Shown: positions 6,115 to 63,577, counted from the stretch's first letter. The stretch: DNA of 64,000 nt from Candidatus Daviesbacteria bacterium (GCA_028715175.1 JAQUSJ010000001.1:610386-674385), one strand, 5' to 3'. Notes: generated by a model not told the origin, from the letters alone. Program-made: numbers and translations.

Positions 6115-6819
6115 ATGAAATTTTCTATCATAACCCTTTTCCCTGAAGTCTTTGAACCCATCCTAAATTCATCAATCCTTAAACGGGCACAAAAAAAAGG
6201 TTTGGTTGAATTTGAGCTAATTAACCTACGTGATTTTGGAGAAGGTAAACACAAAGTAGTTGATGACCGTCCATATGGTGGGGGAGCAGGGATGATTTTA
6301 CGGGCTGACATTCTGACCAAATCATTAAAATCTATACTTTCCAAACTACCAACTACCAACTATCAACTATCAACTATCCTCACCTCAGCATCAGGATACC
6401 CTTATAAACAGAAGAAAGCTCTGGAATTTTCCAAAATAAATCATCTGATCGTCATATGCGGACATTACGAAGGGGTGGATCAGCGGTTTATTGACAAATA
6501 TGTAGACGTCGAAATTTCTATAGGGGATTATGTTTTGACAGGAGGAGAGATCCCGGCCATGGTCATTATTGATTCCATCACCAGGCTGATTCCCGGCGTC
6601 CTGGAAAAACCCGAAGCTACTGTAAATGAATCTTTTTCAAAGGGACTACTTGAACATCCCCAATATACCAGACCGGAAGAATTTGAAGAATCAAAAGTAC
6701 CAAAAGTATTATTATCCGGAAATCATGCCGAGATAGCCAAATGGAGAGAACAAAAATCTTTGGAAAAAACCCAAAAAATCCGCCCGAACCTGCTCAAAAA
6801 TAATGCAAGAAACATGTAG
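6115..6819 (+). CDS. trmD: tRNA (guanine37-N1)-methyltransferase TrmD
   Basis: SPOUT TrmD motifs are present: ITLFPE, DDRPYGGGAGMIL and GHYEGVDQR. It contains an in-frame 7-nt tandem repeat at 6349-6380. Confidence 0.85.
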   Translation: MKFSIITLFPEVFEPILNSSILKRAQKKGLVEFELINLRDFGEGKHKVVDDRPYGGGAGMILRADILTKSLKSILSKLPTTNYQLSTILTSASGYPYKQKKALEFSKINHLIVICGHYEGVDQRFIDKYVDVEISIGDYVLTGGEIPAMVIIDSITRLIPGVLEKPEATVNESFSKGLLEHPQYTRPEEFEESKVPKVLLSGNHAEIAKWREQKSLEKTQKIRPNLLKNNARNM

Positions 6820-7431: not shown

Positions 7432-7472
7432 AATGAAACCGTGTCAACCTAACCCACCCCAGGGGTGGGATG
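7432..7472. repeat. REP-like hairpin (gtgtcaa-cctaa-CCCACCCCAGGGGTGGG-atgaa-ttgacac) upstream of the RAYT-like gene
   Basis: There is a perfect palindromic core, CCACCCCAGGGGTGG, with outer complementary arms gtgtcaa/ttgacac. Confidence 0.7.
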
Positions 7473-7509
7473 AATTGACACCGTACCATTTTTAGGATAA
7501 TCTCAAAAT

Positions 7510-8232
7510 ATGCCCTTTCGCAAAATTCCTGTTGTTGCTGGTGAAATTTATCACGTATTTAATAGAAGCGTAGCCAGACAACCAATCTTTCTTGCTACCA
7601 AAGACTTCAGCAGAGCTATTGAATGTATCAAATTTTATCTACATGGTGATCTGCCTCTGCGTTTTTCTCACTACAATCGTCTTCCTGTAGAACAAAAAGA
7701 CCAAATAACTAAGCAAATACAGAAATGTCCCCAAATAGTAGAAATCCTAAGCTTTTGTTTAATGCCCAACCACGTTCATTTCCTGCTTAAAGGTTTAACA
7801 GAAAAAGGGATAATTCAATTTATGAGTAATTTTCAAAATAGTTACGCAAAATACTTTAACTTAAGAACAGACCGAAGCGGTACTTTATTTCAGGCAATGT
7901 TTAAAGCAGTCAGGATAGAAACAGACGAGCAGCTTGTTCATGTTAACCGGTATATCCACTTAAATCCGGTCACTGCTTATATAGTCAATAATATTGGGGA
8001 CTTAGAGAATTATCCTTGGTCTTCATACCCTGCTTATTGCAAAGCAAAAAGCTTGTCTTATTTAGATTCTTCGTCAAGTTTCATAACTAAAGAACCTGTT
8101 CTAAACCTTTTTAAAGATATACCTGCCTTTAAAAAGTTCACCGCAGACCAAGTCGACTACCAGCGTAAATTAGATGAACCTAACCCACCCCTGGGGTGGG
8201 AAATGCATACACCATCTATTCAAACGGATTAG
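7510..8232 (+). CDS. IS200/IS605-family HUH (Y1) transposase-like protein, REP-associated tyrosine transposase (RAYT)-like
   Basis: An HxH motif (MPNHVHFLL) and a downstream catalytic-Tyr region (NRYIHLNPV) are present. The gene is flanked by inverted REP-like hairpins at 7432-7472 and 8176-8210. Confidence 0.55.
   Translation: MPFRKIPVVAGEIYHVFNRSVARQPIFLATKDFSRAIECIKFYLHGDLPLRFSHYNRLPVEQKDQITKQIQKCPQIVEILSFCLMPNHVHFLLKGLTEKGIIQFMSNFQNSYAKYFNLRTDRSGTLFQAMFKAVRIETDEQLVHVNRYIHLNPVTAYIVNNIGDLENYPWSSYPAYCKAKSLSYLDSSSSFITKEPVLNLFKDIPAFKKFTADQVDYQRKLDEPNPPLGWEMHTPSIQTD
8176..8210. repeat. REP-like hairpin (gaacctaaCCCACCCCTGGGGTGGGa), second copy at the 3' end of the RAYT-like gene
   Basis: It has the same core and flank (aacctaa) as 7432-7472. 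Confidence 0.7.
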
Positions 8233-9461: not shown

Positions 9462-9483
9462 ATTTTTAACTAGCCGTCAGCCA

Positions 9484-10524
9484 TCAGTCTTCAGTTCTTA
9501 ATGCCAACCCGACTGCAGCCGAGTACGAAGAGTTGTCTTGTGACAGTTTCAAAACCACATCTTTTTCCTTCACAATTGAATACCATGGATCGGCTTCTTG
9601 TACTTCCAACCCAAAAACGTTCGCAAGGTAAATAACAAGCCCGGGCATTTTAGCACCGCCTCCTGAAACAATTACTCTTTTTATCGGGTTTGAGGGATAT
9701 TTTGTTTCAAAAGCTTGAATAACACGCCGTCCTTCTCCGGCTATAATATCTATTACCGGTTTCAGCGCTTCAAAGACCTTCCCCTCCAGTTGATCTTCCA
9801 TTATTCCATAGATTTTCTTATATTGCTCCGCTTGATTCATTTCAAAATTGAAATGCTGAACCAGCGACCTGGTCAATGCAATGCCTCCGGTTGAAATTGA
9901 ACGGGTAAGCCATATTAAACCCTTAGAAACAGCAGCAAAATCAGTAGTTGTCGCGCCAAGCTGCATAATCAAAGTACTGGGCGAAAAAGGATCATTCCCG
10001 ACCAGTGACCTGGTAACTGCTATTATCTCTGTCTCCAAAACTTTGGCGCGAAGCCCTGCTTTATCCAAAACTTTAATATATTTTAGTACTGCATTTTTAG
10101 GAGAGGCTATTACCAGCACTACCGTCTTAGCATTTCTCCCCTTTGCTTCGGAACGAACCAAAACCTGCCAATTTAAATTGACATCGGATAGAGGCATCGG
10201 AATAAATTCTTCGGCAGCATAATGTATGGCGCTGCTAAGCTCCGCATCTGTGAGATAAGGCAAATCATCGATAACTCTTGTAAAAACTTTTGATTCGGGT
10301 AGTGCCGCAATAACTTCTCTTTGATCAATATTTGCAGCTGTAAAAAGTTTTTTAATAGAATCTGCAAGAACCTCCAGGTCTTCATCAACATCAGAAATAA
10401 TACCGGGTTGGGGAGATGGGGTAGAACCCAAAGAAACAAGTTTGTACCGATCTTGATCTTTTGCCAGCGAAACTACTTTAATAGAAGAAAAGCCTATATC
10501 TAAACCAACATTAATTTTTGCCAT
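9484..10524 (-). CDS. pilM: Type IV pilus assembly ATPase-like protein PilM (actin/FtsA fold)
   Basis: The N-terminus (MAKINVGLDIGFSSIKVV) is a PilM/FtsA-like phosphate-1 motif. The size is 346 aa and it lies upstream of pilN/pilO. Confidence 0.75.
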   Translation of the reverse strand: MAKINVGLDIGFSSIKVVSLAKDQDRYKLVSLGSTPSPQPGIISDVDEDLEVLADSIKKLFTAANIDQREVIAALPESKVFTRVIDDLPYLTDAELSSAIHYAAEEFIPMPLSDVNLNWQVLVRSEAKGRNAKTVVLVIASPKNAVLKYIKVLDKAGLRAKVLETEIIAVTRSLVGNDPFSPSTLIMQLGATTTDFAAVSKGLIWLTRSISTGGIALTRSLVQHFNFEMNQAEQYKKIYGIMEDQLEGKVFEALKPVIDIIAGEGRRVIQAFETKYPSNPIKRVIVSGGGAKMPGLVIYLANVFGLEVQEADPWYSIVKEKDVVLKLSQDNSSYSAAVGLALRTED

Positions 10525-10527
10525 TGT

Positions 10528-10566
10528 TTTAATTGTAAATTGTAAATTGTAAATTGTAAATTGTCA
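10528..10566. repeat. Intergenic tandem heptamer repeat (ttgtaaa) x5
   Basis: The sequence reads aattgtaaattgtaaattgtaaattgtaaattgtca, between the pilM start and the stop of the upstream gene. Confidence 0.85.
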
Positions 10567-12495
10567 TTTTACCTGATACGTTCCTTTAACCAGGGAATAG
10601 GTGCCGGAAGGTCCTGATTGGAAAAGAGTACTGGATAAACCTGTCTCATAATTAAGGATACCATTATTTATAAGTTTTATTCCCCAGGCAGTTAATTCTT
10701 TAAAAGTATTTCTATTCCCCGGTTCAATGATACCTTTTGAGGCGTAGAAAACTCCTGAGTTGCCGGTATTGTTAATAACAATGGCAGACACCCCGTCCGA
10801 TCTGGAATCATAGTTAGATAAAATCATTAGCAAGCTACTACCGATCCCGGTTCCCCGTAACTGGTTATTACTACCCAAATTGACAATACCGCCACTAACC
10901 CCGTCTCCCACTACTATCACTCCGGATGTCAAACCATATTCCGAAGATAAGGTAAGAGTATTGTTGGTATTGAAAGTTAAGTTTCCGGTAATCCAGATGG
11001 GTGATTTTATGGTTACGGCGCAGTGACTGTCGAAAGTAACATTACCAACAATTTTACCGGGCCCTAAGACATTGACACAAGTTGTGATATCGCCTGTAGT
11101 TACACCGGCATCCCGTGCCTGACTTTCCCAATCTAAAACATTGGCATCAGAAATGGGGAAAACTTTAGGCGGGGAATCAGGGGAATTTGGGTGTAAGCTT
11201 GCAGCTGTAGAATTTTCAATAGTCTGATAATAAGCGTCTCCTTGCATATCAACATTTTTAATAGTATTGGCATGGACACTTCCTCCATTGCCTTGAGCGT
11301 CTTTTTTAACTAAAATACCTTTACCTACTCCGCCATCTACAATAGTTGGAGCACCTCCCATAAAGGTTTTAAAAGAAAGATCGTCGCCAGGACTGACGGC
11401 TGCCCAGCTGGGGTTGCCTGAAGACCAATCAGATGACCACATTCCAAAACAGAGATCCGGATTACCACAGGTATAGCTCTTGGCAAGATCGTTTTGCCAA
11501 GCCCAATAATTTGAAGAATTTGATGATGTATCAATCATGATCCAATAGGTAACACCGGTTGTCAAATTAGACAAAGTGTCGAAGGTAACATCTATCCAGT
11601 TATCAATTGGATAATTGGTGCTGACCAGATTGCTATATAATGTGCCGGTTGCTAAAATATGATTCTTATCAGGCTGACCAGATTTGTCTGCCATGATACG
11701 TACAGTCACATCCGAAGGATTACCGATTTTTTTCACTTTTAAAGACACTTTATTCAAAACATTTGATACTGACGGCTGAAAGCTTTGAGCCACATCCAGA
11801 CGGCTTGAACCCGAAACAGAAGTACCGAATATAAAATCTGTACAATTGGTGCCGGTACAATCAGTCTGCCGATCAGCTATTGCTTGTGGTCCTCCCGCCA
11901 CCCAAACATCTCCTGTAATTTCATTTCCGTTTCCACCCCCAACCGTACTTACCGAACCATTTGAATAAATTGTCCCGGTAATAATATTGCTATTGCCCAG
12001 CGTCAAACCTCCTTCTCCCACTTGTACCCCATAAACAAAAGCTGTACCCACGCCTCTTGATGCAGTTATTTTAATGCTTCTTTTCACTTTTGCCTTGGAT
12101 TTATCCGGTATATAACCTGTTGACTGAATAATTTTGGTGGTAGCGTCTTTGGAAGTTATTGTAACGGAATAGGATCCATCACCTAGAGCAGTTTCCGCTT
12201 CTCCCAAATAACTACCTCCTGTTTTATTTAAAGAAGTAATAGCTTTATCAACTCCTGCTTCGGCTATTACTGTTGCTTTCTCAACATCCAAAGAATAAGA
12301 TGAATTCTGATAATAAAGTTGAGCTCCCGCAATAATAGACAAAACCGTAAAAAGAACCACACCTAAAGCCACAAGGACTAAAAGGAAAATTTGTCCTGAT
12401 TGATTCAATGATGCTTTCCGACTTTCGACTTCCGACTTCCGCAATCGCGGTAGACGGTAGACGGTAGACGGTAGACATTTTTGCAACTTAATCAT
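10564..12495 (-). CDS. Large pilus-operon protein of unknown function (N-terminal TM anchor, Gly/Thr/Ser-rich extracellular region). Possibly a pilus-associated adhesin or PilY1-like component.
   Basis: It is 643 aa, with a TM helix (IFLLVLVALGVVLFTVLSIIA) after a short N-terminus. It lies between the minor pilins and pilM. Its ATG overlaps the upstream stop (ATGA). The first 25 codons consist of 7-nt tandem repeats. Confidence 0.5.
   Translation of the reverse strand: MIKLQKCLPSTVYRLPRLRKSEVESRKASLNQSGQIFLLVLVALGVVLFTVLSIIAGAQLYYQNSSYSLDVEKATVIAEAGVDKAITSLNKTGGSYLGEAETALGDGSYSVTITSKDATTKIIQSTGYIPDKSKAKVKRSIKITASRGVGTAFVYGVQVGEGGLTLGNSNIITGTIYSNGSVSTVGGGNGNEITGDVWVAGGPQAIADRQTDCTGTNCTDFIFGTSVSGSSRLDVAQSFQPSVSNVLNKVSLKVKKIGNPSDVTVRIMADKSGQPDKNHILATGTLYSNLVSTNYPIDNWIDVTFDTLSNLTTGVTYWIMIDTSSNSSNYWAWQNDLAKSYTCGNPDLCFGMWSSDWSSGNPSWAAVSPGDDLSFKTFMGGAPTIVDGGVGKGILVKKDAQGNGGSVHANTIKNVDMQGDAYYQTIENSTAASLHPNSPDSPPKVFPISDANVLDWESQARDAGVTTGDITTCVNVLGPGKIVGNVTFDSHCAVTIKSPIWITGNLTFNTNNTLTLSSEYGLTSGVIVVGDGVSGGIVNLGSNNQLRGTGIGSSLLMILSNYDSRSDGVSAIVINNTGNSGVFYASKGIIEPGNRNTFKELTAWGIKLINNGILNYETGLSSTLFQSGPSGTYSLVKGTYQVK
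12425..12478. repeat. Tandem heptamer repeats (ctaccgt x4, then gaagtcg-like x3 on the coding strand) inside the 5' coding region of the 643-aa gene
   Basis: The sequence is gactttcgacttccgacttccgcaatcgcggtagacggtagacggtagacggtagac. An alternative-frame ORF at 12281..12478 overlaps it. Confidence 0.85.
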
Positions 12496-17152: not shown

Positions 17153-18073
17153 TCAAGGGATAAATGTACCTAATTTTAAATACCAATCGATAATCTGATT
17201 TCCCCAAAAAAGAGTTATCAAGCTTCCCAAAACCAAAAATGGGCCAAAGGGAATTGTTTGACCAAAATGTTTTTTACCGGCAATAATAAGCGCTACTCCG
17301 AATATCGCGCCTGTAAAAAATGCCAAAACCAAAGCTATTAGCGCTTGCGGAAACCCCAGCATTATTCCGATAAATGCTCCTAATTTTACATCCCCTCCGC
17401 CCATTCCTTTCCCGCGGGTAATAATTATTAACCCCCAGAAAAATCCGCCAATCAAGAGTCCCATCAATAATGATAAGAGAAACGGCTGGACTACCATTAA
17501 CGCATGTCTTTGGAAGTATCCACTACTCGGAGGAAGAAGTTGTCTACCGATCGGCGTTTGAGCTAAGTAGTAGTACAAGTATCCTACCTTATATGCGGTA
17601 ATAACCAGCAGGGAAATTGTCCCGATCAGAATAGCCGGTTTAATAATTCTATCCGGAATCAGCATTCTTTTAATATCCGTAATAAAAAGAATTGCCAGAA
17701 TTACAATAAAAAAAGTCTTAAAAAGTAAATCAAAAATAAAAATTAAAAATTTGAAATTTGAAATTAGCTGAAGACTGAAGACTGAAGACTGAAGACTACT
17801 GAACTCTTGCCAAAACAAAAACCCAATCAAAACTCCCACAACAGCCTCAACAATCAAATATTCTATACTGATCCGATTCTTACAATATCTGCATTTTCCT
17901 CTAAGCAAAACGTAGGAAAGAATAGGAAAAAGGTCGTACACAGCCAGCGTATGCCGACACCTCAAGCAGTACGACCTTCCCCAAAAAGATTTATTGCTTA
18001 AACTACGATCAGCCAATGCTTTTACCAAGCTTCCCAAGACTATACCAATCAAAAATCCGGCTGATCCCCACAT
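17153..18073 (-). CDS. pilD: Prepilin peptidase (A24 family) PilD
   Basis: It has an N-terminal CxxC...CxxC zinc-binding domain (CLRCRHTL...CRYCKNRIS), a multi-TM body, and GGGDVKLGAFIG (the catalytic Asp region). It contains an in-frame (tcttcag)x4 repeat at 17766-17800. Confidence 0.8.
   Translation of the reverse strand: MWGSAGFLIGIVLGSLVKALADRSLSNKSFWGRSYCLRCRHTLAVYDLFPILSYVLLRGKCRYCKNRISIEYLIVEAVVGVLIGFLFWQEFSSLQSSVFSLQLISNFKFLIFIFDLLFKTFFIVILAILFITDIKRMLIPDRIIKPAILIGTISLLVITAYKVGYLYYYLAQTPIGRQLLPPSSGYFQRHALMVVQPFLLSLLMGLLIGGFFWGLIIITRGKGMGGGDVKLGAFIGIMLGFPQALIALVLAFFTGAIFGVALIIAGKKHFGQTIPFGPFLVLGSLITLFWGNQIIDWYLKLGTFIP
17766..17800. repeat. Tandem heptamer repeat (ctgaaga x4, + strand) in frame within pilD
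   Basis: gctgaagactgaagactgaagactgaagactactga encodes SSLQSSVFSLQL in PilD. Confidence 0.85.
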
Positions 18074-18673: not shown

Positions 18674-19873
18674 TTAAAATGACGTGGTTAATTTGTAAAT
18701 AGGCAATATTATTGAGATAACTAAAAAAGCTACGCCAATCCCTAGGATGATTAGAACAATTGGCTCGATCGCTACAGTCAAATTCTTAACCATATGGTCT
18801 GATTCAGATTCAAAATAGTCAGCCAGCTTAAAAAATATTTCATCTACTTTTCCTGTTTCTTCACCCACTCTAACCATCTGGCTGATAATTTTTGGGAAAA
18901 TATTGGCTGTAAGAAGAGAAGAAAACGGCAATCCTTTTTCTACTCCGGAGTAACTTTCTTTGAGTGCATTTTTAAACACCGGATTATCCATTAAATCCGA
19001 TACTATACCAATAGAATCAAGTAACGGTATGCCTGCAGAAATCAGCAGCCCAAACGTACGGTTGAAATTTGTCAGTGCAACATTTGCCACAACCTTTCCC
19101 GCAATTGGGATTCTTAGAATCAATTTGCCTAAGAAAAGATTCCCCTCGGGGGTCCGTTTCCATCTGTCTATCCCAATGTATCCTCCAATTAAAATAATAA
19201 GTCCCAACCACCAATAGTTCACAAAAAGATTTGACGTAGTAATCAATATTTTGGTAGGCAATGGCAATTCCATTGTTGATTGAGAATACAAAGTTAAAAG
19301 CTTCGGGATAACAAAAATCATCATTATAACAAGCACTACCAGCATCATAGATAAAACTAACACCGGATAGATCATTGCTCCTTTAATTTTTGCTTGAAAT
19401 TCTCTTTCTTTCTCCAACCCGTCAGCCATCTGTAAAAGAATAGAATCAAGCTTACCGGAGGCCTCACCGGCCTTAATTAAATTAACATAAAGATGGGGAA
19501 AAATATCAGGATATTTACTAAAGGCTTGTGCCAACGTTAAACCTCCTTTGATGTCCTGGGAAATGTCATTCAAAGCTTTCTTCAGATTTTTATTGGTTTG
19601 CTGGTCTTCCAGAATATCTATCGCTTCTGATAAAACTAGTCCGCTGCTCACCATTGTTGCCAACTGTCTAGTGAAAATAACTACTTCAGAAAAACCTACC
19701 CTATTTATAAAACGGTCCAGCAACCTGTTTACAGGAGGCGTTTTAGGAGACAGTGAAATAACAATCAGACCCTCCTTTCGTATAGTCACAGCAGCAGAAT
19801 GAGCATCGGGAGATTTAACGCTGCCGACGTGTTCCTGACCCTGTATATCTTTTGCTTTGTAGATAAATTCCAT
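18674..19873 (-). CDS. pilC: Type IV pilus inner-membrane platform protein PilC (GspF family)
   Basis: It shows the duplicated GspF domain architecture, with TM segments and a conserved LPLP-type region. It lies between pilA/pilD and pilT. Confidence 0.85.
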   Translation of the reverse strand: MEFIYKAKDIQGQEHVGSVKSPDAHSAAVTIRKEGLIVISLSPKTPPVNRLLDRFINRVGFSEVVIFTRQLATMVSSGLVLSEAIDILEDQQTNKNLKKALNDISQDIKGGLTLAQAFSKYPDIFPHLYVNLIKAGEASGKLDSILLQMADGLEKEREFQAKIKGAMIYPVLVLSMMLVVLVIMMIFVIPKLLTLYSQSTMELPLPTKILITTSNLFVNYWWLGLIILIGGYIGIDRWKRTPEGNLFLGKLILRIPIAGKVVANVALTNFNRTFGLLISAGIPLLDSIGIVSDLMDNPVFKNALKESYSGVEKGLPFSSLLTANIFPKIISQMVRVGEETGKVDEIFFKLADYFESESDHMVKNLTVAIEPIVLIILGIGVAFLVISIILPIYKLTTSF

Positions 19874-19880
19874 AATAATA

Positions 19881-19960
19881 GTCGTCAGTCATCAGTCTTC
19901 AGCTATCAGACTTTCTTGTTTTTGTCTGACGACTGAAAGCTGATCGCTGATAGCTATTTC
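19881..19960. repeat. Palindromic element built of 7-nt NNNTCAG units (gtcgtcag tcatcag tcttcag ctatcag ac-loop-gtctgacgactgaaagctgat...), in the pilC-pilT intergenic region
   Basis: There is an imperfect inverted repeat around a ctttcttgtttttg loop. Related copies occur at 47004-47090, 61679-61755 and 63049-63128 and inside gyrB, murD and gyrA. Confidence 0.8.
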
Positions 19961-24080: not shown

Positions 24081-26191
<2,111 letters not shown>

Positions 26192-29712: not shown

Positions 29713-31105
29713 TTTTAAAAAAGTTTTGGTCTTTGGATTAGGGCTTAATGAGGGTGGGGTGGGATCTGCCAGATTTTTTGCAAGACAAGGAGCCAAAGTC
29801 AGGGTAACTGATTTAAAAACTAAAGAAGTTTTAAAACCTTCTTTGCATGAGTTAAGAAATTTTCCGCAAATAGAATATACCTTAGGTAAACACAAAAATA
29901 AGGATATAGATTGGGCGGATTTAATTATCAAAAACCCGGCAATTAAACCAGGAAATCCTTACCTGGAATATGCCACAAAATTGGGTAAACAGATTGACAC
30001 AGACATGGGAATTTTTCTGCAATATGTACGACCTGACCAGATCATTGGAGTAACCGGAACCAAAGGCAAATCCACTACTGCCTCGCTAATTTATGAGGTA
30101 CTCAGCAAATCCTTAGGTGTCAACCTATCCCACCCCAGGGGTGGACAACGCACACACCCCTGGAAAAATGTTATTCTGGCCGGCAATATCGGCAAAAGCG
30201 TTCTGGAAACAATTTCGTTTGTTAAAAACAATACCTTAGTGGTCCTGGAGTTATCTTCATTCCAGCTGGAAGCATATGATACGCACAAAGTTTCTCCAAA
30301 ATGGGCAGTAATCACAAACATCACTCCTGACCATCTTAATTATTACCAAACAATGGCAGAATATATTAAATCTAAAAAAATAATAGGCAAATATCAAAGC
30401 AAAACCGATTATCTTTTTTTGCGGAAAAATGATCCGATTACTACCATACCTGACTTCTTAAAGGAACTAAAGGGAAAAATTATTTATTATTCTAAAAATG
30501 ATTTACCAGAAAACTTTCGTCCTCAACTTTTAGGCAGTCATAATCTGGAAAATATTGCTGCCGCACTGTCTTTAACAAAAACCTTTGGAATTGATAAAAA
30601 ATCTGCTCTCAAAATTCTATCAAAGTTCAAAGGTGTCCCATTTCGGATGGAGTTAATCAAGAAGTGGAATGGAGTGAAAATATACAATGACACTGCTGCC
30701 ACCAGCCCGGAAGCAGGAATCCAGGCTGTAGAAACCTTAGGTGGCAACCTAACTTCACCCCTAGGGTGTCTAATCTTAATTTGCGGGGGAATGAACAAAA
30801 AAATGGATTATACAAAATATACGAGGGTCGTAGCTAAATTTGCCAAAAAGGTTTTCTTTTTGGAAGGGGACTCAACTGATGAAATAAATAAACAGCTGTC
30901 AGCTTTCAGTCGTCAGACGTCAGACAAAATTGCAGGGACCTATGATAATTTAGAAAAACTTCTCGCGGACGTCAAGAAAATTATAAAACCAAAAGATATT
31001 GTTCTGTTTTCGCCTGCCGCCACTTCTTTTAATTTATTTCAAAATGAATTTGACAGGGGTAGAAAATTTAATCAAGCTGTCAAAAAAGTTTTTAAAGATG
31101 CTTAA
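29705..31105 (+). CDS. murD: UDP-N-acetylmuramoylalanine--D-glutamate ligase MurD
   Basis: The N-terminal Rossmann region (VLVFGLGLNEGGVGSARF) and the P-loop GVTGTKGKSTTASLI are present. It contains in-frame REP-like copies (30112-30155, 30748-30782) and a TCAG-heptamer element (30893-30928). Confidence 0.8.
   Translation: MNSFKKVLVFGLGLNEGGVGSARFFARQGAKVRVTDLKTKEVLKPSLHELRNFPQIEYTLGKHKNKDIDWADLIIKNPAIKPGNPYLEYATKLGKQIDTDMGIFLQYVRPDQIIGVTGTKGKSTTASLIYEVLSKSLGVNLSHPRGGQRTHPWKNVILAGNIGKSVLETISFVKNNTLVVLELSSFQLEAYDTHKVSPKWAVITNITPDHLNYYQTMAEYIKSKKIIGKYQSKTDYLFLRKNDPITTIPDFLKELKGKIIYYSKNDLPENFRPQLLGSHNLENIAAALSLTKTFGIDKKSALKILSKFKGVPFRMELIKKWNGVKIYNDTAATSPEAGIQAVETLGGNLTSPLGCLILICGGMNKKMDYTKYTRVVAKFAKKVFFLEGDSTDEINKQLSAFSRQTSDKIAGTYDNLEKLLADVKKIIKPKDIVLFSPAATSFNLFQNEFDRGRKFNQAVKKVFKDA
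30112..30155. repeat. REP-like copy (caacctatCCCACCCCAGGGGTGGacaacgcacacacccctgg) in frame in murD
   Basis: It encodes LSHPRGGQRTHPW. A second degenerate copy, aacctaacttcacccctagggtgtc, lies at 30748-30782 and encodes NLTSPLGCL. Confidence 0.65.
30893..30928. repeat. NNNTCAG-heptamer element (agctgtcag ctttcag tcgtcag acgtcag acaaaa) in frame in murD
   Basis: It encodes QLSAFSRQTSDK near the murD C-terminus. Confidence 0.75.
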
Positions 31106-33218: not shown

Positions 33219-35783
33219 ATGAGTAACATCGGCAAAATACAACCAGCTCCTATTATTGAAGAAATGCAAAAGTCCTATTTGGACTATGCCATGTCTGTTA
33301 TTGTTTCCCGGGCGCTACCGGACGTCCGTGACGGCCTAAAACCGGTCCAAAGAAGAATTATTTACGCAATGCACCAGCAAGGTTTACACCACACATCCCG
33401 CTTCCAAAAATCAGCTGCAGTTGTCGGTGAAGTTATGAAAAACCTCCATCCTCATGGTGATGCTCCTATATATGAAGCTATGGTCCGGATGGCGCAAAAT
33501 TTTTCCATGAGATATATGCTGGTTGACGGCCAGGGGAATTTTGGATCAATTGATGGAGACTCGCCCGCGGCAATGCGGTATACGGAGGCCAGACTTTCTG
33601 CAATTTCCGAGGAGCTACTTCGTGACATTAATAAAAACACTGTCAATTTTGTGGATAACTATTCCGGTACTACACAAGAACCAGTATTACTTCCTTCTGT
33701 TATACCCAACCTATTGTTAAACGGCGCCTCCGGCATTGCTGTTGGTATGGCCACCCAAATCCCGCCACATAATCTGGGAGAAGTCGTCGATGCGCTGGTT
33801 TACATGATAGAACATCCCGAAAATAAGTCGGAAAACTCAGAAAAACTCAGAAAATCAGAAGATCAGAATTCCGGTGAATCTGATTTCCCTGACAAATCTG
33901 GTACACCGAGTCCTTCCGAATCTTTCCGATCCACTGCCACTGTGGAAAATCTCCTGCAATTTATCAAAGGTCCTGATTTTCCAACCGGCGCTTCCATCTA
34001 TGACCAAACCGAAATCCTTGCGGCTTATGCCACCGGTAAGGGCCGGATTGTAATGAGAGCCAAAGCTGAAATAGATGAATCCGGCGCAGCCGGAGGAAAA
34101 ATGCAAATTATCGTTTCGGAGCTGCCATACCAGGTGAATAAAGCTACCTTGATTGCCAGGATTGCCGAGCTGGTAAAAGATAAAAAATTAGAGGGCATTG
34201 CGGATTTACGGGATGAGTCAGACCGTAAACAAATGGTCAGAATTGTATTTGACTTAAAAAGAGACGCCAAACCCCAGGCAATCTTAAATAGTCTTTATAA
34301 ATATACTGCCATGCAATCGGTTTTTAATATCAACCTGGTCGCTCTTTCAGACGGAGTCCCGCATCTGCTGACATTAAAACGGGTATTAGAAGAATTTATT
34401 CACCACAGGCAAGTAGTCATTAGAAAACGCTCCGAATTTGAACTTGCCGAAGCCAAAGCAAGAGAACATATCCTAGAAGGCTTAAAAATTGCTGTTGATA
34501 ATATTGATGCGGTTGTGGAAACCATTAAAAAAAGTGCTGACGCAGATTCTGCAAAACAGAATTTAATGACCCGATTTAAATTAACAGAAATCCAAGCTTT
34601 GGCTATTTTGGATATGCAACTTCGAAGGTTAGCTGCGCTGGAGCGCCAAAAAATTGAAGATGAACTAAAAATGATCCGGGAAACAATTGCCTATTTGGAA
34701 GATTTGCTGGCTCATCCGGAAAAAATCTTAAAAGTTATCAAGGATGAACTCGTAAAAATTAAACTAAGATACGGAGATGACAGACGAACCCGTGTTTATA
34801 AACAAAAAGTCGGGGAATTTTCCGAAGAAGATTTAGTACCAAACGAAACAACTATTGCTACCATCACCGAAGGCGGTTATATCAAACGCCAAGCTCCGAT
34901 GTCTTTTAGGGTACAACAGCGGGGCGGCAAAGGGGTGATGGGAATTGCCACCAAAGAAACAGATGCAGTTTCTCACATTTTCTATACCCAAACACATGAC
35001 AGTATTTTATTCTTTACCGACAAAGGCAGGGTTTTCCAAATCAAGGTTTGGGAAATTCCGGAAACACAACGCGCAGCCAAAGGTCAGGCTATTGTCAACT
35101 TGATCAATGTTGAACAGGAGGAAAAAGTTACGGCAGTTTTAACCACCAGGCAAAAAGGCGAAAGCGCCAAATACTTCTTTATGTGTACTAAAGGCGGCAC
35201 TGTCAAAAAAACTTCCCTTACAGAATATGCCAATATCCGCAAAAATGGTCTGGTAGCAATCAAGTTGGATCCGAGCGACGAACTGGGATGGGTGACCCCA
35301 ACCTCAGGCAAGGATGATGTTGTTATTGTTTCAAAAAATGGCAAATCGATCCGTTTTTCCGAAACCCAAGTCAAACCAACGCACCGGGATACTTCCGGAG
35401 TAAGAGGAATTAAGCTAACCAGTAACGATGAGGTAGTCTCCTTAAATTTGGTCCAAGGTAATGATGATGAGCTTTTGGTAATTATGCAAAACGGTTTAGG
35501 TAAAAAAACCAGATTTTCCGCCTGGAGCAGACAGGGCAGGGGAGGACAAGGAGTTAAAGCTGCGCAGGTGACTGCCAAAACCGGACCAATTGTTACAGCA
35601 GAGGCCATTGATAAAAAAATGGACACGTTGGTATTAACTTCCACCAAAGGACAACTTATAAAGATGAATTTAGCAGAAGTACCGACCCTGCAGCGTCAAA
35701 CTCAAGGTGTAATCTTAATGAGAGTCAGACCCGGGGAAAAAGTAGCAGCAGCTACGGTTGTTTGTTCTAAAGAAAAAACATAG
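33219..35783 (+). CDS. gyrA: DNA gyrase subunit A
   Basis: [25 protein letters not shown], the active-site region (AAMRYTE) and the C-terminal beta-pinwheel repeats are present. There is an in-frame insertion at 33825-33900. Confidence 0.9.
33825..33900. repeat. TCAG-rich repeat / hairpin inserted in frame in gyrA (…actcag aaaaactcag aaaatcag aagatcag aattccggtgaatctga…)
   Basis: It encodes [27 protein letters not shown] between the conserved VYMIEHPE and GPDFPTGA regions. Confidence 0.7.
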
Positions 35784-46468: not shown

Positions 46469-47002
46469 TTACTTCGCAACCAATTTCAAAACATGACAGA
46501 TAGCAATTGCCAGCGCATCTGTGGCATCATCCAGGTGTCCACCTTTCCAATTTACTTTAAGCTTATTCCGTTTTCTGCCGGAGGTTCCCAGGAACTTCCT
46601 TACCCCATCATGGACTTGATTTTTATCAGCTCTGCCTGACCCGGCAACCAAAAGTTTCACCTGCAAACCCGTATAATCTTGAAACGGAATGTTATGCTGA
46701 GAAGCTGTTAACATAATCACTCCCCTCGCCTGTCCTACCATAATGGCAGTTCTGGTATTGGCCCCGAAAAATAACATCTCGCAAATCATCTGGTCCGGCT
46801 GATATTTTTTTATAACCGAGGTTAGTTCGCTGTGTATCATATGCAAGCGATCCTGCATTAGTTTATCTTTGGGCGTGCTGATATTTCCATAAGCTATCAA
46901 TTCTATATTGTAGTTAAATTCCCGACTTAATATGTCATCCGGTATTTTTATGACTCCATAACCAGTGGTAGCTGTTCCAGGATCAATTCCTAAAATAATC
47001 AT
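46469..47002 (-). CDS. ruvC: Crossover junction endodeoxyribonuclease RuvC
   Basis: The N-terminus MIILGIDPGTATTGYGVI, the size and the acidic catalytic residues fit RuvC. Confidence 0.85.
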   Translation of the reverse strand: MIILGIDPGTATTGYGVIKIPDDILSREFNYNIELIAYGNISTPKDKLMQDRLHMIHSELTSVIKKYQPDQMICEMLFFGANTRTAIMVGQARGVIMLTASQHNIPFQDYTGLQVKLLVAGSGRADKNQVHDGVRKFLGTSGRKRNKLKVNWKGGHLDDATDALAIAICHVLKLVAK

Positions 47003-47003
47003 A

Positions 47004-47090
47004 GTCGTCAGTATCGCTTCGCTCTCAGTCTTCAGCTTTCAGACTTGTTTTGTCTGACGACTGATGACTGATAGCTGATAGCTATTCTTG
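47004..47090. repeat. NNNTCAG-heptamer palindromic element filling the yebC-ruvC intergenic region
   Basis: The sequence is gtcgtcagtatcgcttcgctctcagtcttcagctttcagac-ttgtttt-gtctgacgactgatgactgatagctgatagct, an inverted repeat around a ttgtttt loop. Confidence 0.85.
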
Positions 47091-56908: not shown

Positions 56909-57772
56909 ATGGCTGGTGAAACTGTTACCCCATTTCCCGGTCCTTTTGAACATCATCCCAATCCTTTTGAACGTTTAGGCCACAAAGTCGAAACTGTTCT
57001 TCCGTGGCTTGGTAGACATTGGAAATCACTTTCTTTAGCTGCAGCCGCTGCAATAATTCCTGCGGCTGGTGCTGTTTATCTGTTTATTACCCATGACAGA
57101 GGTCCACAAACTTCCCCACAACCCAATAATCCTACCTCAGATACAATCAAAGATCCTAGTACGGAAATAGGCGCAACTATACCGACTCTTGTACCTAGAG
57201 AAGTTCCACCAACAGCTACTGCAACAGCAACTGCTACTTCTACCACTACCCCAGAAGTAAGGAAAGATATTCCTTGTGTCATTCTTCCAATTGAATATTG
57301 TTCTAAAGCAGAACTTGTAGAACGTATCAGTGCAAAAGGAGAATCTAGTAAGGGAGTTGGGGTTAAAGTAGATCCAGGCACTAAAATATTTTCACCTATA
57401 GCTGGTTCAGCCTCAAAAAGAGAATCTGATACTGGTTTTGTGGCTACTATTAATAATCCTAATGATCCTACTGGTCTAGTGCATGGTATACAAGGTGATA
57501 TAGTATTTTACAACCCAAATACAGAAGACAAAGTTGAAAAGGGACAAGAAATAGGATATGTTGGCACAAAACACTATCCCTCCCCTTTAGGTGATTATAA
57601 CCTCCGTATTAGTTCAAATATCATTGAAAATGGTAAGCTAGTTGATAATCCTGGTGCACTACAAAAGCTTTTTCCAGAGGCATTTGAAAATGGCGTTGTA
57701 AGGGTAATTGATCTGCGTAATTCTGATTCTACCTCTGCCAAAACAACATATTTAACTCCTTCGTACCGATAA
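56909..57772 (+). CDS. Membrane-anchored Pro/Thr-rich protein with a C-terminal degenerate LytM/M23-like domain (paralog 1)
   Basis: It has a TM anchor, then a PT-rich linker, then the domain VGVKVDPGTKIFSPIAGSA...GIQGDIVFYNPNTEDKVEKGQEIGYVG (M23-like topology without the HxH motif). Confidence 0.45.
   Translation: MAGETVTPFPGPFEHHPNPFERLGHKVETVLPWLGRHWKSLSLAAAAAIIPAAGAVYLFITHDRGPQTSPQPNNPTSDTIKDPSTEIGATIPTLVPREVPPTATATATATSTTTPEVRKDIPCVILPIEYCSKAELVERISAKGESSKGVGVKVDPGTKIFSPIAGSASKRESDTGFVATINNPNDPTGLVHGIQGDIVFYNPNTEDKVEKGQEIGYVGTKHYPSPLGDYNLRISSNIIENGKLVDNPGALQKLFPEAFENGVVRVIDLRNSDSTSAKTTYLTPSYR
57294..57732. repeat. 439-bp segment apparently 100% identical to 57990..58428 (3' halves of the paralog genes)
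   Basis: Direct comparison of the two stretches shows identity throughout; the divergence points are at 57293/57989 and 57733/58429. Confidence 0.85.
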
Positions 57773-57808
57773 TTGACATTTATACTCCTCGTCTTCTATT
57801 GTTAAGGT

Positions 57809-58468
57809 ATGGGATCTTTCTGGGAAAAGCCCATTTTCTGGATCATATTTGTACTGCTAGTACTGATTTCTATACCTGTGTTAACTTATTTTTTCAAGCC
57901 ACAAATTTTATCCGGCATAGGTTATATACCCAGTAAGATAAAAAACCTGCAAGCTCCTAAACCGGGAAAGTGTCTAATTCTTGAAGGAAAATATTGTTCT
58001 AAAGCAGAACTTGTAGAACGTATCAGTGCAAAAGGAGAATCTAGTAAGGGAGTTGGGGTTAAAGTAGATCCAGGCACTAAAATATTTTCACCTATAGCTG
58101 GTTCAGCCTCAAAAAGAGAATCTGATACTGGTTTTGTGGCTACTATTAATAATCCTAATGATCCTACTGGTCTAGTGCATGGTATACAAGGTGATATAGT
58201 ATTTTACAACCCAAATACAGAAGACAAAGTTGAAAAGGGACAAGAAATAGGATATGTTGGCACAAAACACTATCCCTCCCCTTTAGGTGATTATAACCTC
58301 CGTATTAGTTCAAATATCATTGAAAATGGTAAGCTAGTTGATAATCCTGGTGCACTACAAAAGCTTTTTCCAGAGGCATTTGAAAATGGCGTTGTAAGGG
58401 TAATTGATCTGCGTAATTCTGATTCTACTGGAAGTGGAATTTTGAATCCTTCCTATAACAAACAATGA
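57809..58468 (+). CDS. Membrane-anchored protein with the same degenerate LytM/M23-like C-terminal domain (paralog 2)
   Basis: It has a different N-terminal TM anchor. The C-terminal ~146 aa are identical to paralog 1. Confidence 0.45.
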   Translation: MGSFWEKPIFWIIFVLLVLISIPVLTYFFKPQILSGIGYIPSKIKNLQAPKPGKCLILEGKYCSKAELVERISAKGESSKGVGVKVDPGTKIFSPIAGSASKRESDTGFVATINNPNDPTGLVHGIQGDIVFYNPNTEDKVEKGQEIGYVGTKHYPSPLGDYNLRISSNIIENGKLVDNPGALQKLFPEAFENGVVRVIDLRNSDSTGSGILNPSYNKQ

Positions 58469-61400: not shown

Positions 61401-61677
61401 AGTTACCCGGATTGATGCAGTTATTATCTCTTCCGGGAAAATCTACACTGCAGGTTCCGGCTGCAACCACGGCTCACCTGTGACTGCCAACCAGCTGGTC
61501 ATTAACGGCAGTTTAATATCTTTAGACAGCAACAAAAACATTGAATTTTGCCGGACTCTTGGAAGCAACAACAATACCACCAAGCCGGCCGAACTGATCA
61601 ACAACCAGCCCAAATATCTGGTCATTTTGCGCAATCTCTTTTCCCAAACCTACCAGAAATGGGAAGAAATACCATAA
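58465..61677 (+). CDS. Giant secreted Cys-rich/Pro-rich protein with a PA14 domain, two copies of a ~70-aa Cys-rich module and a C-terminal beta-helix-like region
   Basis: It has a signal/TM N-terminus. PA14 is identified by FSGRWQGNFTFKAGTYTFYAGADDGVRLKIDG...ELEYYENGGDARVSLRW. ACSGD(I/T)CTDCLI..QGDP..FL.FY.(D/N)NGWDISC..Q..I..NWCN occurs twice. There are PPPAPPPPPPG and PTPTPTPTPTP linkers. Confidence 0.6.
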   Translation: MKNKRIIFLKLTIQLVLLFIFLILLTLDVPLVQADTSYVTPLYLPAAGGLGYIPCNDASECNLGACFNSQAVGVTDCGQPCQGGITWTKYDYYGCQQNWINFDTGEEECRPIYIQGGSVCSTGDKCVSGETGLRSGSCSCGGYSSSIYKYCCTSAGAAEACTTAGATQDNNPPPEGRCPGGYITDENRVRSSACTASPTPTPSPAPICQNNSDCGTCRRCCINPPSNYCSTLNYECSGTLIPGCVSCQCQYSQTCNSGAGVQTCNGRYNSSGICVYSSLCDPNCSECTSSSNPPPATPPPAPPPPPPGCSFSNCGASGCQPDQRYVSGTCSYAWYFGPACYYDASCGGGGGGDNYVAPTTGPNCTSDDIMYFDPPAPKQDQPFTINVLSKGPSGRYLSIALDITTPLDPAGVQVVTSPSYPDIPSFYQVQGYQYSWQWLIGKAESGPTPYLFEFSINGRSQYCVSNILYVDPPSISAWIKASGDVHSNDWIRASGGPDAITYQGIICPAQSQNPRVTGGLITTYGLSDNFGNSEAICVVGSSAPFAPFKLLTYDDLKSLYFTQSKLGPDQKITLTGNQTQSSLTNPINLSSQALLPQPTNFLASFKNLIQKLVNPISEVFAQSAPACSGDICTDCLINNQGDPTAFLKFYEDNGWDISCGSQTGIIQNWCNATSEQATAQCNSMKSGVCAIACGNTPSPGTNQLTGNLWDGTNFNTPDGGAPSGPSLSAPVPDTATALDQNWGTGAPNSTVGSDTFSGRWQGNFTFKAGTYTFYAGADDGVRLKIDGVTRINSWVDTGYTERSYTQIFSSQAKHLIELEYYENGGDARVSLRWSHAAFACSGDTCTDCLISKQGDPPNFLRFYQNNGWDISCSNQTAIVANWCNTTDPSGCTALKSGSCATACGYVAPTPTPTPTPTPPVLDKLYHITGDLTVESNMTVGKTGIIFIDGNLSINTNLTHTSSNAGLVLAVKGDVTVNPSVTRIDAVIISSGKIYTAGSGCNHGSPVTANQLVINGSLISLDSNKNIEFCRTLGSNNNTTKPAELINNQPKYLVILRNLFSQTYQKWEEIP

Positions 61678-61678
61678 T

Positions 61679-61755
61679 AGCTGTCAGTCTTCAGCTATCA
61701 GCTTTCAAACCAGTAACAAAAAGTCTGACGACTGACGACTGAAAGCTGATAACTA
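61679..61755. repeat. NNNTCAG-heptamer palindromic element between convergent genes (PA14 protein / dksA-like)
   Basis: The sequence is gctgtcagtcttcagctatcagctttcaaaccagtaacaaaaagtctgacgactgacgactgaaagctgataact. Confidence 0.8.
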
Positions 61756-62115
61756 TTTCCCGAAATTTTTCTTTGAACAGGCTACACAGTACTGAGCTGT
61801 AGGCATGGCTAAAAGCCTGCCAATCTCAATCTGTTTACCGCAATTCTCACATTTTCCATAAGTGCCGTTCTTAATCTTTTGCAGAGCTACCTTTATACTG
61901 GTTTTAGCATCTGTCAACTTTTTTCCCAACACTATACTTTTACCGTGAGTTTCAGCAATATAAGAATCCGTACCTGGTTCCGAGGATTCTACCAGAGCAG
62001 GTGATTTTGCCGGATCGTCTTCGGTAACAAGCTTTAAATTTTTCTCTACCTCTTTTTGCTGCCTTAAGAGGTGTTTTTGGATAAACTCAAGGGTTTTTTT
62101 AGGAAAATTTGACAT
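61753..62115 (-). CDS. DksA/TraR-family C4-type zinc-finger protein
   Basis: A C-terminal CxxC...CxxC (CENCGKQIEIGRLLAMPTAQYCVAC) follows a coiled-coil N-terminus. Confidence 0.6.
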   Translation of the reverse strand: MSNFPKKTLEFIQKHLLRQQKEVEKNLKLVTEDDPAKSPALVESSEPGTDSYIAETHGKSIVLGKKLTDAKTSIKVALQKIKNGTYGKCENCGKQIEIGRLLAMPTAQYCVACSKKNFGK

Positions 62116-63048: not shown

Positions 63049-63128
63049 GATAGCTTTCAGCCATCAGTCTTCAGCTTTCAGATTTTTTTGAGTTATCTAA
63101 CGACTGATAGCTGACATCTGACGACTAT
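63049..63128. repeat. NNNTCAG-heptamer palindromic element in the divergent lgt / 63134 intergenic region
   Basis: The sequence is gatagctttcagccatcagtcttcagctttcagatttttttgagttatctaacgactgatagctgacatctgacgact. Confidence 0.75.
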
Positions 63129-63133
63129 TACAA

Positions 63134-63577
63134 ATGACCGCTACCACACATGCACTTATTGGAGGGGTAATTACCCAATATGTTCCGGATCCGACCATAG
63201 GAATATCCCTTTCTGCCATTTCTCACCCGATTGTAGACATAATTCCCCATTGGGATTTTGGTTTAGGCTGGAAAAGTAAAAAAAAAGCATTGCTTTTTTG
63301 TCAAACCAGCGCTGATTTTATTTTTGGAGTTATCTTAACTTTCTTAATTTTTGGCAATACCACAAATCATTTATACCTCCTCATCTGCATACTTATCTCC
63401 GAATCCTGGGATATTTTACAAATGCCGTATTTACTGCTAAATTGGAAATTCTTACCTTTTTCGGCGTTTTACCACGTTGGAAGTGCTACAAATAATAAAG
63501 CTGGCATGTTCTGGGGTGTTATTTCGCAAATTGCAACTGTCGGAGTATTAGTTTTAATTCTTAGAACTATTCACTAA
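63134..63577 (+). CDS. Hypothetical membrane protein (possibly DUF457-like membrane-bound hydrolase)
   Basis: It is 147 aa with 3-4 hydrophobic helices. Family assignment is weak. Confidence 0.35.
   Translation: MTATTHALIGGVITQYVPDPTIGISLSAISHPIVDIIPHWDFGLGWKSKKKALLFCQTSADFIFGVILTFLIFGNTTNHLYLLICILISESWDILQMPYLLLNWKFLPFSAFYHVGSATNNKAGMFWGVISQIATVGVLVLILRTIH

Follow-up and report, generated by a model that had tools for sequence, protein, structure and literature searches.

A 64-kb stretch of a Candidatus Daviesbacteria genome (Candidate Phyla Radiation, CPR; Patescibacteria), which we call the window and to which all copy counts for the source genome refer, contains a dispersed family of short inverted repeats built from 7-nucleotide (nt) units with a TCAG core. 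We interpret these TCAG elements, with about even confidence, as lineage-specific small non-autonomous dispersed repeats of the REP or MITE type (repetitive extragenic palindrome and miniature inverted-repeat transposable element, respectively), in which convergent (AGyyNTC)n and (GANrrCT)n arrays flank a loop. The Daviesbacteria family is most likely one CPR representative of a widespread class of TCAG-heptad palindromes with constrained polarity, noticed before and left unexplained. CPR genomes are ~1 Mb in size and densely packed. As interpreted here, an active small repeat can insert where coupled genes overlap by 4 nt, and in the GyrB, GyrA and MurD linkers, and leave them intact; it would explain some of the length variation of core proteins in CPR.

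The window (G+C ~40%) holds eight TCAG-element loci, five full copies of ~80 bases and three half copies, with the overall design (AG-YY-N-TC)3-4, a T/A-rich loop and (GA-N-RR-CT)3-4. The consensus of nine aligned copies reads nATAG-nnnTCAG-nCnTCAG-nnnTCAG-CTnTCAGAC, a T-rich loop, then TCTGACGACTGA-nGACTGA-nnnCTGA-nAGCTATT. A preliminary description of the window had proposed a search with such a consensus. The motif TCAGN3TCAGN3TCAG, with at most one mismatch, matched 23 times in the window against 0.22 expected, and the loop-proximal motif GTCTGACGACTGAN3CTGA, with at most three mismatches, matched 19 times against 0.05 expected; both counts lie far beyond chance. A repeat search of the window sorted the copies into three families (D3, D5 and D8). 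The eight loci are as follows.

19878..19957, no strand assigned: full element in the pilC-pilT spacer; core AG...CT 19880-19955, comprising left arm 19880-19911, loop 19912-19923 and right arm 19924-19955, with AT at both sides; pilT stop CTA at 19954-19956, pilC start CAT at 19871-19873.
47001..47085, no strand assigned: full element at yebC-ruvC; core 47003-47083, left arm partly degenerate; the spacer is filled exactly, with the yebC stop CTA at 47082-47084 and the ruvC start CAT at 47000-47002.
61677..61756, no strand assigned: full element between convergent stop codons; core 61679-61754; surface-protein TAA at 61675-61677, dksA-like TAG at 61753-61755.
63050..63128, no strand assigned: full element between divergent genes; core 63052-63126, ending 5 nt before the ATG of open reading frame (ORF) 63134-63577.
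25822..25914, plus strand: full element within gyrB, between the Toprim and C-terminal domains, translated in frame.
30894..30932, plus strand: half element within murD, consisting of the TCAG arm and part of the loop, translated as QLSAFSRQTSDK.
9472..9497, minus strand: half element at the 3' end of pilM, reading (CTGAAGA)(CTGATGG)(CTGACGG)CT on the minus (transcribed) strand.
17768..17797, minus strand: one-armed array, (CTGAAGA)4 on the plus strand, within the prepilin peptidase (pilD) ORF 17153-18073 and read as TCTTCAG codons.

Pfam bears out the names PilC, PilT, PilM, YebC, RuvC, DksA-like and Lgt for the genes concerned. The four intergenic copies and the partial copy at pilM reported in the preliminary description all lie where it had placed them, and they form a genuine repeat family at gene junctions, where they would be co-transcribed. 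The half copy provides pilM with its in-frame TGA stop, the ATG of the next gene following 10 nt further on. The restriction of the family to intergenic and gene-end sites did not survive, because the full copy in gyrB and the half copy in murD, both within ORFs, had been missed. Three copies do fill entire spacers, as had been claimed, whereas the copy at 63050..63128 leaves 62 nt to the lgt start, a distance that includes a conserved -35/-10-like stretch. The unit had been given as NNNTCAG; its length and core are correct, but the unit in the Daviesbacteria lineage is tighter, AG-(TC|CT)-N-TC. In nearly all full copies the ends read AT-AG(yy)NTCAG ... CTGAN(rr)CT-AT. These are terminal inverted repeats, as in a MITE, made of an array of units and not of unique sequence, and their heads are variable (TAGTCG, TAGCTG, TAGCTT). 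The right arm of the gyrB copy is broken by a 20-nt mini-palindrome. As a group, the copies are tandem 7-nt units with a conserved core, dispersed and mostly intergenic.

The relationship between copies is clearest for those at yebC-ruvC and in gyrB (pair I1), which match at 91% over a 47-nt stretch, including 32 identical nt that run across the non-repetitive loop. More generally, the loops share CAGACTTT(C/T)TTGT...TCTGACGACTGA across loci and genomes. The similarity between loci thus holds on alignment, and the alignments show that unlinked copies evidently descend from one another by copy-and-paste. Telomere-like addition of heptamers, or addition during double-strand-break repair, would explain independent arms, and is contradicted by the shared loops.

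We compared the window with relatives, those examined at yebC-ruvC being recovered from metagenomes. L120 (GCA_028712705.1) shares synteny with the window and shows 95-98% identity to it in pilC/pilT; L023, also a Daviesbacterium, is distant, with 76% nucleotide identity; L124 and L125 carry an Lgt 87% identical to that of the window; and L127 is the closest relative of the window at yebC-ruvC. Presence and absence at orthologous junctions, which the preliminary description had suggested checking, were seen. The pilC-pilT junction of L120 has a 4-nt spacer, ACAG, in place of the element, a clean difference of 76 nt. L126 lacks the dksA-side element, its dksA ending in AAA TGA, and upstream of lgt has an unrelated palindrome at the same place as the element of the window. 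The yebC-ruvC junction is filled in the window and in L127. L023 also carries a TCAG element at pilC-pilT, 82% identical to that of the window against a baseline of 55-79% from the invariant cores alone, and has a further one at pilin-pilD, where the window has 4 nt. Copies also differ in their arms. The orthologue of the dksA-side copy in L124/L125 has an identical right arm and a left arm of one unit, against four in the window, and L120 has the same murD copy with 21 extra nt, equal to three heptamers, that keep the frame. L120 retains the prepilin peptidase array, in which one unit varies. In gyrA, one and the same codon position holds a regular (AGTCGTC)4 element in L120 (19778-19880) and a TCAG-containing palindrome with 8-10-nt periods in the window (33830-33930). 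To judge from these orthologous loci, copies have been gained, lost or replaced while flanking genes differ by 2-5%, and arms change by the gain or loss of whole heptamers. The elements may also explain contig breaks, as the L124 contig ends 126 nt past a copy.

The linker between the Toprim and C-terminal domains of GyrB is hypervariable in Daviesbacteria (homologues P0002, P0011 and P0034, compared with window 25800-25920 and L120 11700-11830). Many Daviesbacteria GyrB proteins have no insert at the element site (644-649 aa), and L120 has an unrelated palindrome there, GTCATTCTGG...CCAGAATGAC. This palindrome recurs in GyrB linkers and is translated as ..VILGSEATPE..EDSGQARMTK. Separately, the GyrB homologues P0012, P0039, P0075, P0083 and P0105 from Daviesbacteria/Patescibacteria are ~1,080-1,110 aa long and contain an intein (PF14890).

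The route of insertion was examined at yebC-ruvC, where 12 loci (10 distinct sequences) of relatives keep a 4-nt ATGA stop/start overlap. The window junction can be written GAACAAGA-AT-[AG...CT]-AT-GATTATT. Removal of the bracket and one AT yields GAA TGA overlapping ATG ATT, and the same removal in L127 yields CTC ATA TGA. With this parse an in-frame stop is restored in both, and the C-terminus has the same length as in the relatives. A TA target duplication of the IS630/Tc1 type was rejected, since the TA parse gives no stop codon at this junction. At this one junction the element appears to have inserted next to, or with duplication of, the AT inside the ATGA overlap of coupled genes; we infer the same as a general route. 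The T of AT together with the terminal AG of the element would create a new TAG stop for the upstream gene, while the second AT would rebuild the ATG of the downstream gene, leaving both proteins unchanged. This would explain why the element fills the spacer exactly and why the abutting genes end in TAG. AT is found at both ends in six of the eight full intergenic copies examined; in the two from L023, GT and AC stand in its place on one side. In the viral high-G+C set described below, no flank consensus was found beyond the terminal AG/CT, apart from a weak excess of ATG, so AT flanks and an abutting ATG do not generalize.

Inside genes a different constraint applies. By the arithmetic of the design, three or more CTGA units place TGA in all three frames. 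Copies in ORFs can therefore survive only if they are read in the TCAG direction, with the CTGA arm shortened or frame-compatible. The copies in gyrB, murD and the prepilin peptidase are indeed read in the TCAG direction. The elements would be tolerated because their ends rebuild stop and start codons and because the TCAG reading stays open.

Several observations weigh against the interpretation as mobile repeats. The AT-duplication parse yields no stop codon for pilT or dksA. The AT model comes from one junction, at which the window and L127 may share a single event, and AT is self-complementary, which makes a duplication indistinguishable from part of the terminal inverted repeat. The presence of a pilC-pilT copy in both the window and the distant L023 requires that one site was hit twice or that a copy was retained for long; the latter would hint at function. 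The heptad or palindromic families found at these junctions differ between lineages, for which turnover in situ could also account. The search covered 64 kb of the source genome, and the genome-wide copy number is extrapolated. Finally, no transposase or other partner protein could be tied to the elements in the window, nor did the window contain a cognate full-length insertion sequence or transposase with matching ends, as a MITE would have. The sole transposase-like gene there, ORF 7510-8232 on the plus strand, encodes a 240-aa Y1 HUH transposase-like protein (motifs NHVHFLL and RYIHLNP). It scores 36.9 bits with Pfam Y1_Tnp and 52.9 bits with the NCBIfam model for REP-associated tyrosine transposases (RAYT), under the cutoff of 80. 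This RAYT-like gene is flanked by a different family of nested palindromes, GTGTCAA..CCCACCCCWGGGGTGGG..TTGACAC, at 7441-7482 and 8172-8213, with a third copy at 30107-30144 inside the murD ORF. The region resembles a RAYT accompanied by a REP family of its own that is distinct from the TCAG elements.

A further explanation is that nothing is mobile, that heptamer arrays grow in place by polymerase slippage with inverted pairs arising by local fold-back, and that the likeness of the copies stems from their shared short unit. The 7-nt periodicity, called distinctive in the preliminary description, is real at the level of the lineage. Tandem arrays with a lag of 7 number eight in the window against 0-1 for other lags (4-12), and 34 in 495 kb of other Daviesbacteria DNA against at most 10 for other lags; their unit sequences are diverse. 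Arrays with other units had been noted in the window as unrelated to the element, which is true of those at 6344, 10531 and 12416, but the array at 17768-17797, (CTGAAGA)4, shares its core. In YebC, the loop GEIRVKGKGGS is coded by a heptamer-periodic stretch, (AAGGGTA)n in most lineages and (AGTCGTC)4, (AGTCATC)4, (AGAGTCA)4 or (AAGTCAA)n in others (loci L128-L163, ~420 nt into yebC, e.g. L149 2347-2381 and L130 3422-3462). Different heptamers at the same codons indicate that coding arrays turn over in place. At the yebC-ruvC junction, other lineages carry different heptad palindromes with the units GCYAAWA, NTGAACT and AGTTCAT/ATGAACT. Slippage would also account for arm lengths that shift by whole units, and it has been suggested as the cause of the over-representation of heptamer simple sequence repeats in many bacteria, known since 2007 (PMC4692102). 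However, it does not account for 32 identical nt across a non-repetitive loop in unlinked copies or for a clean 76-nt indel between near-identical genomes. It predicts homogeneous arrays, whereas neighboring units are identical in just 24% of cases among the viral-contig elements described below, and it predicts neither polarity bias nor core specificity across phyla. We consider slippage a very improbable explanation for the TCAG elements.

Perfect or near-perfect arrays elsewhere in the window are (AACTATC)5 at 6344-6378, (AATTGTA)5 at 10531-10564, which sits between the pilM start and the stop of ORF 10564-12495, and (AAATTAA)6 at 17727-17766. Within ORF 10564-12495 (minus strand), an inverted heptamer pair with another core, (TTCCGAC)n-CGCAATCGCG-(CGGTAGA)n at 12413-12481, has a predicted DNA fold of -14.4 kcal/mol (z -3.6). 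The heptad-palindrome design in this genome thus extends past TCAG.

As had been proposed, every full TCAG copy is predicted to fold into a long RNA hairpin, on both strands, with energies between -20 and -34 kcal/mol; z-scores over the set range from -2.5 to -8.5, and the gyrB copy reaches -47 kcal/mol (z -8.5). The DNA folds are much weaker, at -8 to -16 kcal/mol, and the murD half copy alone has no predicted fold. The stems consist of 5-6-bp blocks centered on TCAG/CTGA with a mismatch every 7 nt. Contrary to what had been thought, the right arm is not an approximate reverse complement of the left, since only the cores pair, together with some flanking wobble pairs. For arm statistics we used 144 elements of the same design from viral contigs. 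Their commonest arm has four cores. Of the three variable bases of a unit, the first is uniform inside an element (92%), and the second and third vary freely. Compared in register, the variable triplets of left and right arms are complementary at 1.48 of 3 positions, against 1.5-1.66 after a shift by one or two units. Pairing is thus not maintained outside the cores, and orthologous copies differ in arm length. The conserved feature is the phased TCAG core and not a perfect hairpin.

A role as terminator or attenuator had also been suggested, and is not supported. In the window, no copy is spanned in full by a terminator-like site or followed by a T-run; the single terminator-like call that touches a copy (61700-61675) covers part of one arm, and its tail is weak. 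Two copies are located between genes that in relatives are translationally coupled, one between convergent stop codons and one upstream of the promoter-like stretch; four are in ORFs, those in gyrB, murD and pilD being in frame. We rejected an intrinsic (Rho-independent) terminator, given the lack of a U tract and the copies between coupled operon genes and inside ORFs. Rfam 15 at the gathering score gave no match in the window, and only a transfer RNA in 14 element-rich loci.

We also scanned GTDB species genomes with the pattern GTCTGAN3CTGAN3CTGAN3CTGA, which matched at least 119 loci. Among the matches listed, the arrangement TCAG arm, loop, CTGA arm was found 23 times and its mirror once. 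The taxa represented include Acidobacteriota (among them the isolate Geothrix alkalitolerans), Gemmatimonadota, Verrucomicrobiota, Planctomycetota, Acidimicrobiia, Desulfobacterales and Omnitrophota, and the TCAG-first arrangement occurs in at least seven phyla. IMG/VR was then tested with an unbiased pair of symmetric patterns, giving at least 120 stretches for TCAG-first and nine for the mirror orientation. The control cores TGAC and GACT gave 3-5 stretches in the orientation incompatible with TCAG and 20-28 in the compatible one, several of the latter falling in loci that also carry TCAG-first elements. Since both polarities form the same duplex, this bias points to protein recognition, a directional mechanism or a strand-symmetric functional need.

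The viral matches are mostly in high-G+C contigs. One siphovirus-like contig of 34 kb (IMGVR_UViG_3300045936_000120; loci L231, L249 and L250; G+C 0.6) carries at least 14 TCAG-heptad palindromes, mostly between co-directional genes. It encodes a tape measure, a tail tube, a tail completion protein gp17 and two DNA methylases. Its elements have related loops (CTAAA(A)CGC...), and several end in ...AGCT straight before an ATG. In 41% of element-strand tests, against 6% at random positions, the end of a long ORF falls no more than 25 nt upstream of the TCAG arm; the start of a long ORF falls no more than 25 nt past the CTGA arm in 28%, against 14%. Together with the polarity counts, this describes a convergent pair, that is, two close opposite-strand arrays just downstream of an ORF. 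A BLAST search of two elements against 50,697 cultured phage records gave no match, possibly owing to the low-complexity filter.

These data bear on whether the elements serve the host as RNA, as stabilizing or processing hairpins in polycistronic messages (e.g. substrates of RNase III, whose gene is in the window), or as a stop-and-restart module whose 3' CUGA array is a platform for initiation independent of a Shine-Dalgarno (SD) sequence. We regard this as unlikely, although a number of observations fit it. The hairpins are predicted on both strands and are far more stable as RNA than as DNA, and TCAG-first is the sole polarity that puts a CUGA array 3' on both strands. The CTGA arm lies close to start codons, at 0 nt for ruvC, 6 for pilC, 7 for ORF 63134, 10 for the gene after pilM, and 0 for both L023 pilD and L127 ruvC. 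In the phage contigs ~41 long ORFs start 0-14 nt past the last CTGA, mostly with the SD-like motif missing. Arrays of TAACTGA in Beggiatoaceae have the same orientation and lie mostly 1 nt before starts that lack a ribosome-binding site (RBS) (PMC4679880). Against this stand the presence or absence of copies between genomes that are 95-98% identical, the copies between convergent stops or upstream of a promoter, and those translated within gyrB, murD and pilD. The stems are not kept by complementary variable bases and differ strongly in length between orthologous copies, and the enrichment is greater at ORF ends than at ORF starts.

The invariant core of 4-5 nt, the two free positions per unit, the modal arm of four cores and the fixed polarity suit protein recognition better than RNA pairing. 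They could accordingly mark double-stranded DNA binding sites of a small nucleoid-associated protein or global regulator, with each 7-bp heptad bound by one module. The omega protein of pSM19035 provides an analogy, as its ribbon-helix-helix dimers each bind a 7-bp unit in direct and inverted arrays of WATCACW heptads at promoters or parS; the TCAG elements are analogous in their 7-bp period and their conserved core. Aklujkar et al. make the same proposal for the Geobacter MTYCTGA pairs (PMC2700814). We think this reading quite unlikely for the TCAG elements, which lie chiefly at gene 3' ends and in operons and ORFs instead of promoters, and show rapid presence/absence turnover. Their high density in the 34-kb phage contig would be odd for a host regulator and would suit a protein acting on the element itself.

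The strict polarity, the TCAG core with free neighbors, the four-unit arms and the occurrence in phages all indicate a specific protein or machine. For the reading as mobile repeats, a trans-acting protein would recognize the TCAG heptads in series, each binding module taking one unit, and fix the polarity. A transposase, a recombinase or some other protein that binds heptads could be this reader. The RNA hairpin would be a by-product and may, at operon junctions, keep the stop codon near the start codon.

A REP consists of one palindrome of 20-40 nt headed by a conserved GTAG or CGTC; REPs and bacterial interspersed mosaic elements (BIMEs) are associated with RAYT transposases. The TCAG elements resemble them in being short, dispersed, imperfect and non-autonomous palindromes just after stop codons, and a RAYT-like gene is present in the window. 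They differ in being heptad arrays of ~80 nt with variable heads, and it is the CCCACCCCWGGGGTGGG palindromes that flank the RAYT-like ORF. We therefore rejected membership of REP/RAYT. Rickettsia palindromic elements and the Correia/NEMIS elements are bacterial MITEs that enter coding regions and are polymorphic in their presence, as are the small palindromes described here; Correia elements are also co-transcribed, as hairpins open to cleavage by RNase III. Their arms are of unique sequence, and Correia elements have a TA duplication and a defined terminal inverted repeat. None of these elements is known to consist of heptamer arrays around an invariant core of 4 nt. CRISPR or TIGR-like arrays were rejected on the wrong period and the absence of spacers. 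Neisseria-type DNA uptake sequences in inverted pairs were rejected on the low density, the units being arrays and the occurrence in phages. A V(D)J-like heptamer/nonamer likeness of the loop was taken as coincidence.

The preliminary description did not recognize the family among described classes. It is indeed absent from Rfam, but CTGA-core heptamer arrays or inverted heptamer pairs are known in Geobacter, Beggiatoaceae, cyanobacteria and Xanthomonas (PMC2700814, PMC4679880, PMC4692102). In Geobacter metallireducens, the 'class 3 predicted global regulator binding sites' are eight pairs of opposite-strand arrays of ~5 heptamers each with the consensus MTYCTGA (Aklujkar et al. 2009, PMC2700814). 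The 16 sites are given in a supplementary figure, proB and proA, neighbors in an operon, flank one of the pairs, and the account of the class assigns no function (PMC2700814). Compared by description, these pairs are, like the TCAG elements, inverted heptamer arrays with a CTGA core and variable bases; that account concerns Desulfobacterota and, as far as it goes, leaves mobility, polarity, coding copies and insertion sites unanalyzed (PMC2700814).

TAACTGA heptamer repeats occur in marine Beggiatoaceae, cyanobacteria and some Bacteroidetes, as 169 direct sets and one inverted repeat (MacGregor 2015, PMC4679880). They are mostly intergenic and point forward towards RBS-less start codons, the commonest class ending 1 nt upstream; some overlap the end of the upstream ORF, and inside ORFs only the TCAG reading is tolerated, as forward reading gives stops (PMC4679880). 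The CTGA core, the proximity to start codons, the TCAG-only reading in ORFs and the patchy spread across phyla are shared with the TCAG elements, whereas TAACTGA is one fixed unit in direct sets and the elements described here have variable triplets and convergent inverted pairs with a loop (PMC4679880). The window copies fit the TAACTGA type in these respects and do not use the exact TAACTGA unit, so the relatedness is one of kind and not of identity.

In Xanthomonas, GGGAATC is found in ~185 arrays per genome, four units being the modal length, and 89-93% of them are intergenic and near the end of the upstream ORF; 70-75 pairs are convergent on opposite strands, and length varies widely between close species (Rehm et al. 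2015, PMC4692102). The cyanobacterial STRR/GGGGAYT repeats are further heptamer arrays (Mazel et al. 1990, as cited in PMC4692102). The TCAG elements resemble these arrays in having ~4 units, an intergenic location and convergent pairs near upstream ORF ends. They differ in their unit from the Xanthomonas arrays, which have a G-rich core studied for G-quadruplex formation and for which in-frame copies in essential genes or insertion into stop/start overlaps are not described (PMC4692102). In our limited literature search, a mechanism and a polarity rule were not given in any of the three papers (PMC2700814, PMC4679880, PMC4692102).

A bolder proposal, which we put forward as doubtful, is that TCAG-heptad convergent palindromes, 5'-(NNNTCAG)~4, loop, (CTGANNN)~4-3', are one cis-element class of at least seven phyla and of phages, read by a conserved machine that fixes polarity, with the Daviesbacteria elements, Geobacter MTYCTGA and Beggiatoaceae TAACTGA as local versions. 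The machine could be a dedicated heptad-binding mobilizing protein or the translation apparatus. In the translation version, the element could work as a two-way module at which ribosomes stop in every frame and restart with no need of an SD sequence.

The large surface-protein gene upstream of the dksA-side copy spans 58465-61677; the label 'PA14' for this gene comes from the preliminary description. Direct repeats occur in or beside this gene at 57275-58270 (300 nt at 97%, with a spacing of 696 nt) and 60332-61121 (151 nt at 77%).

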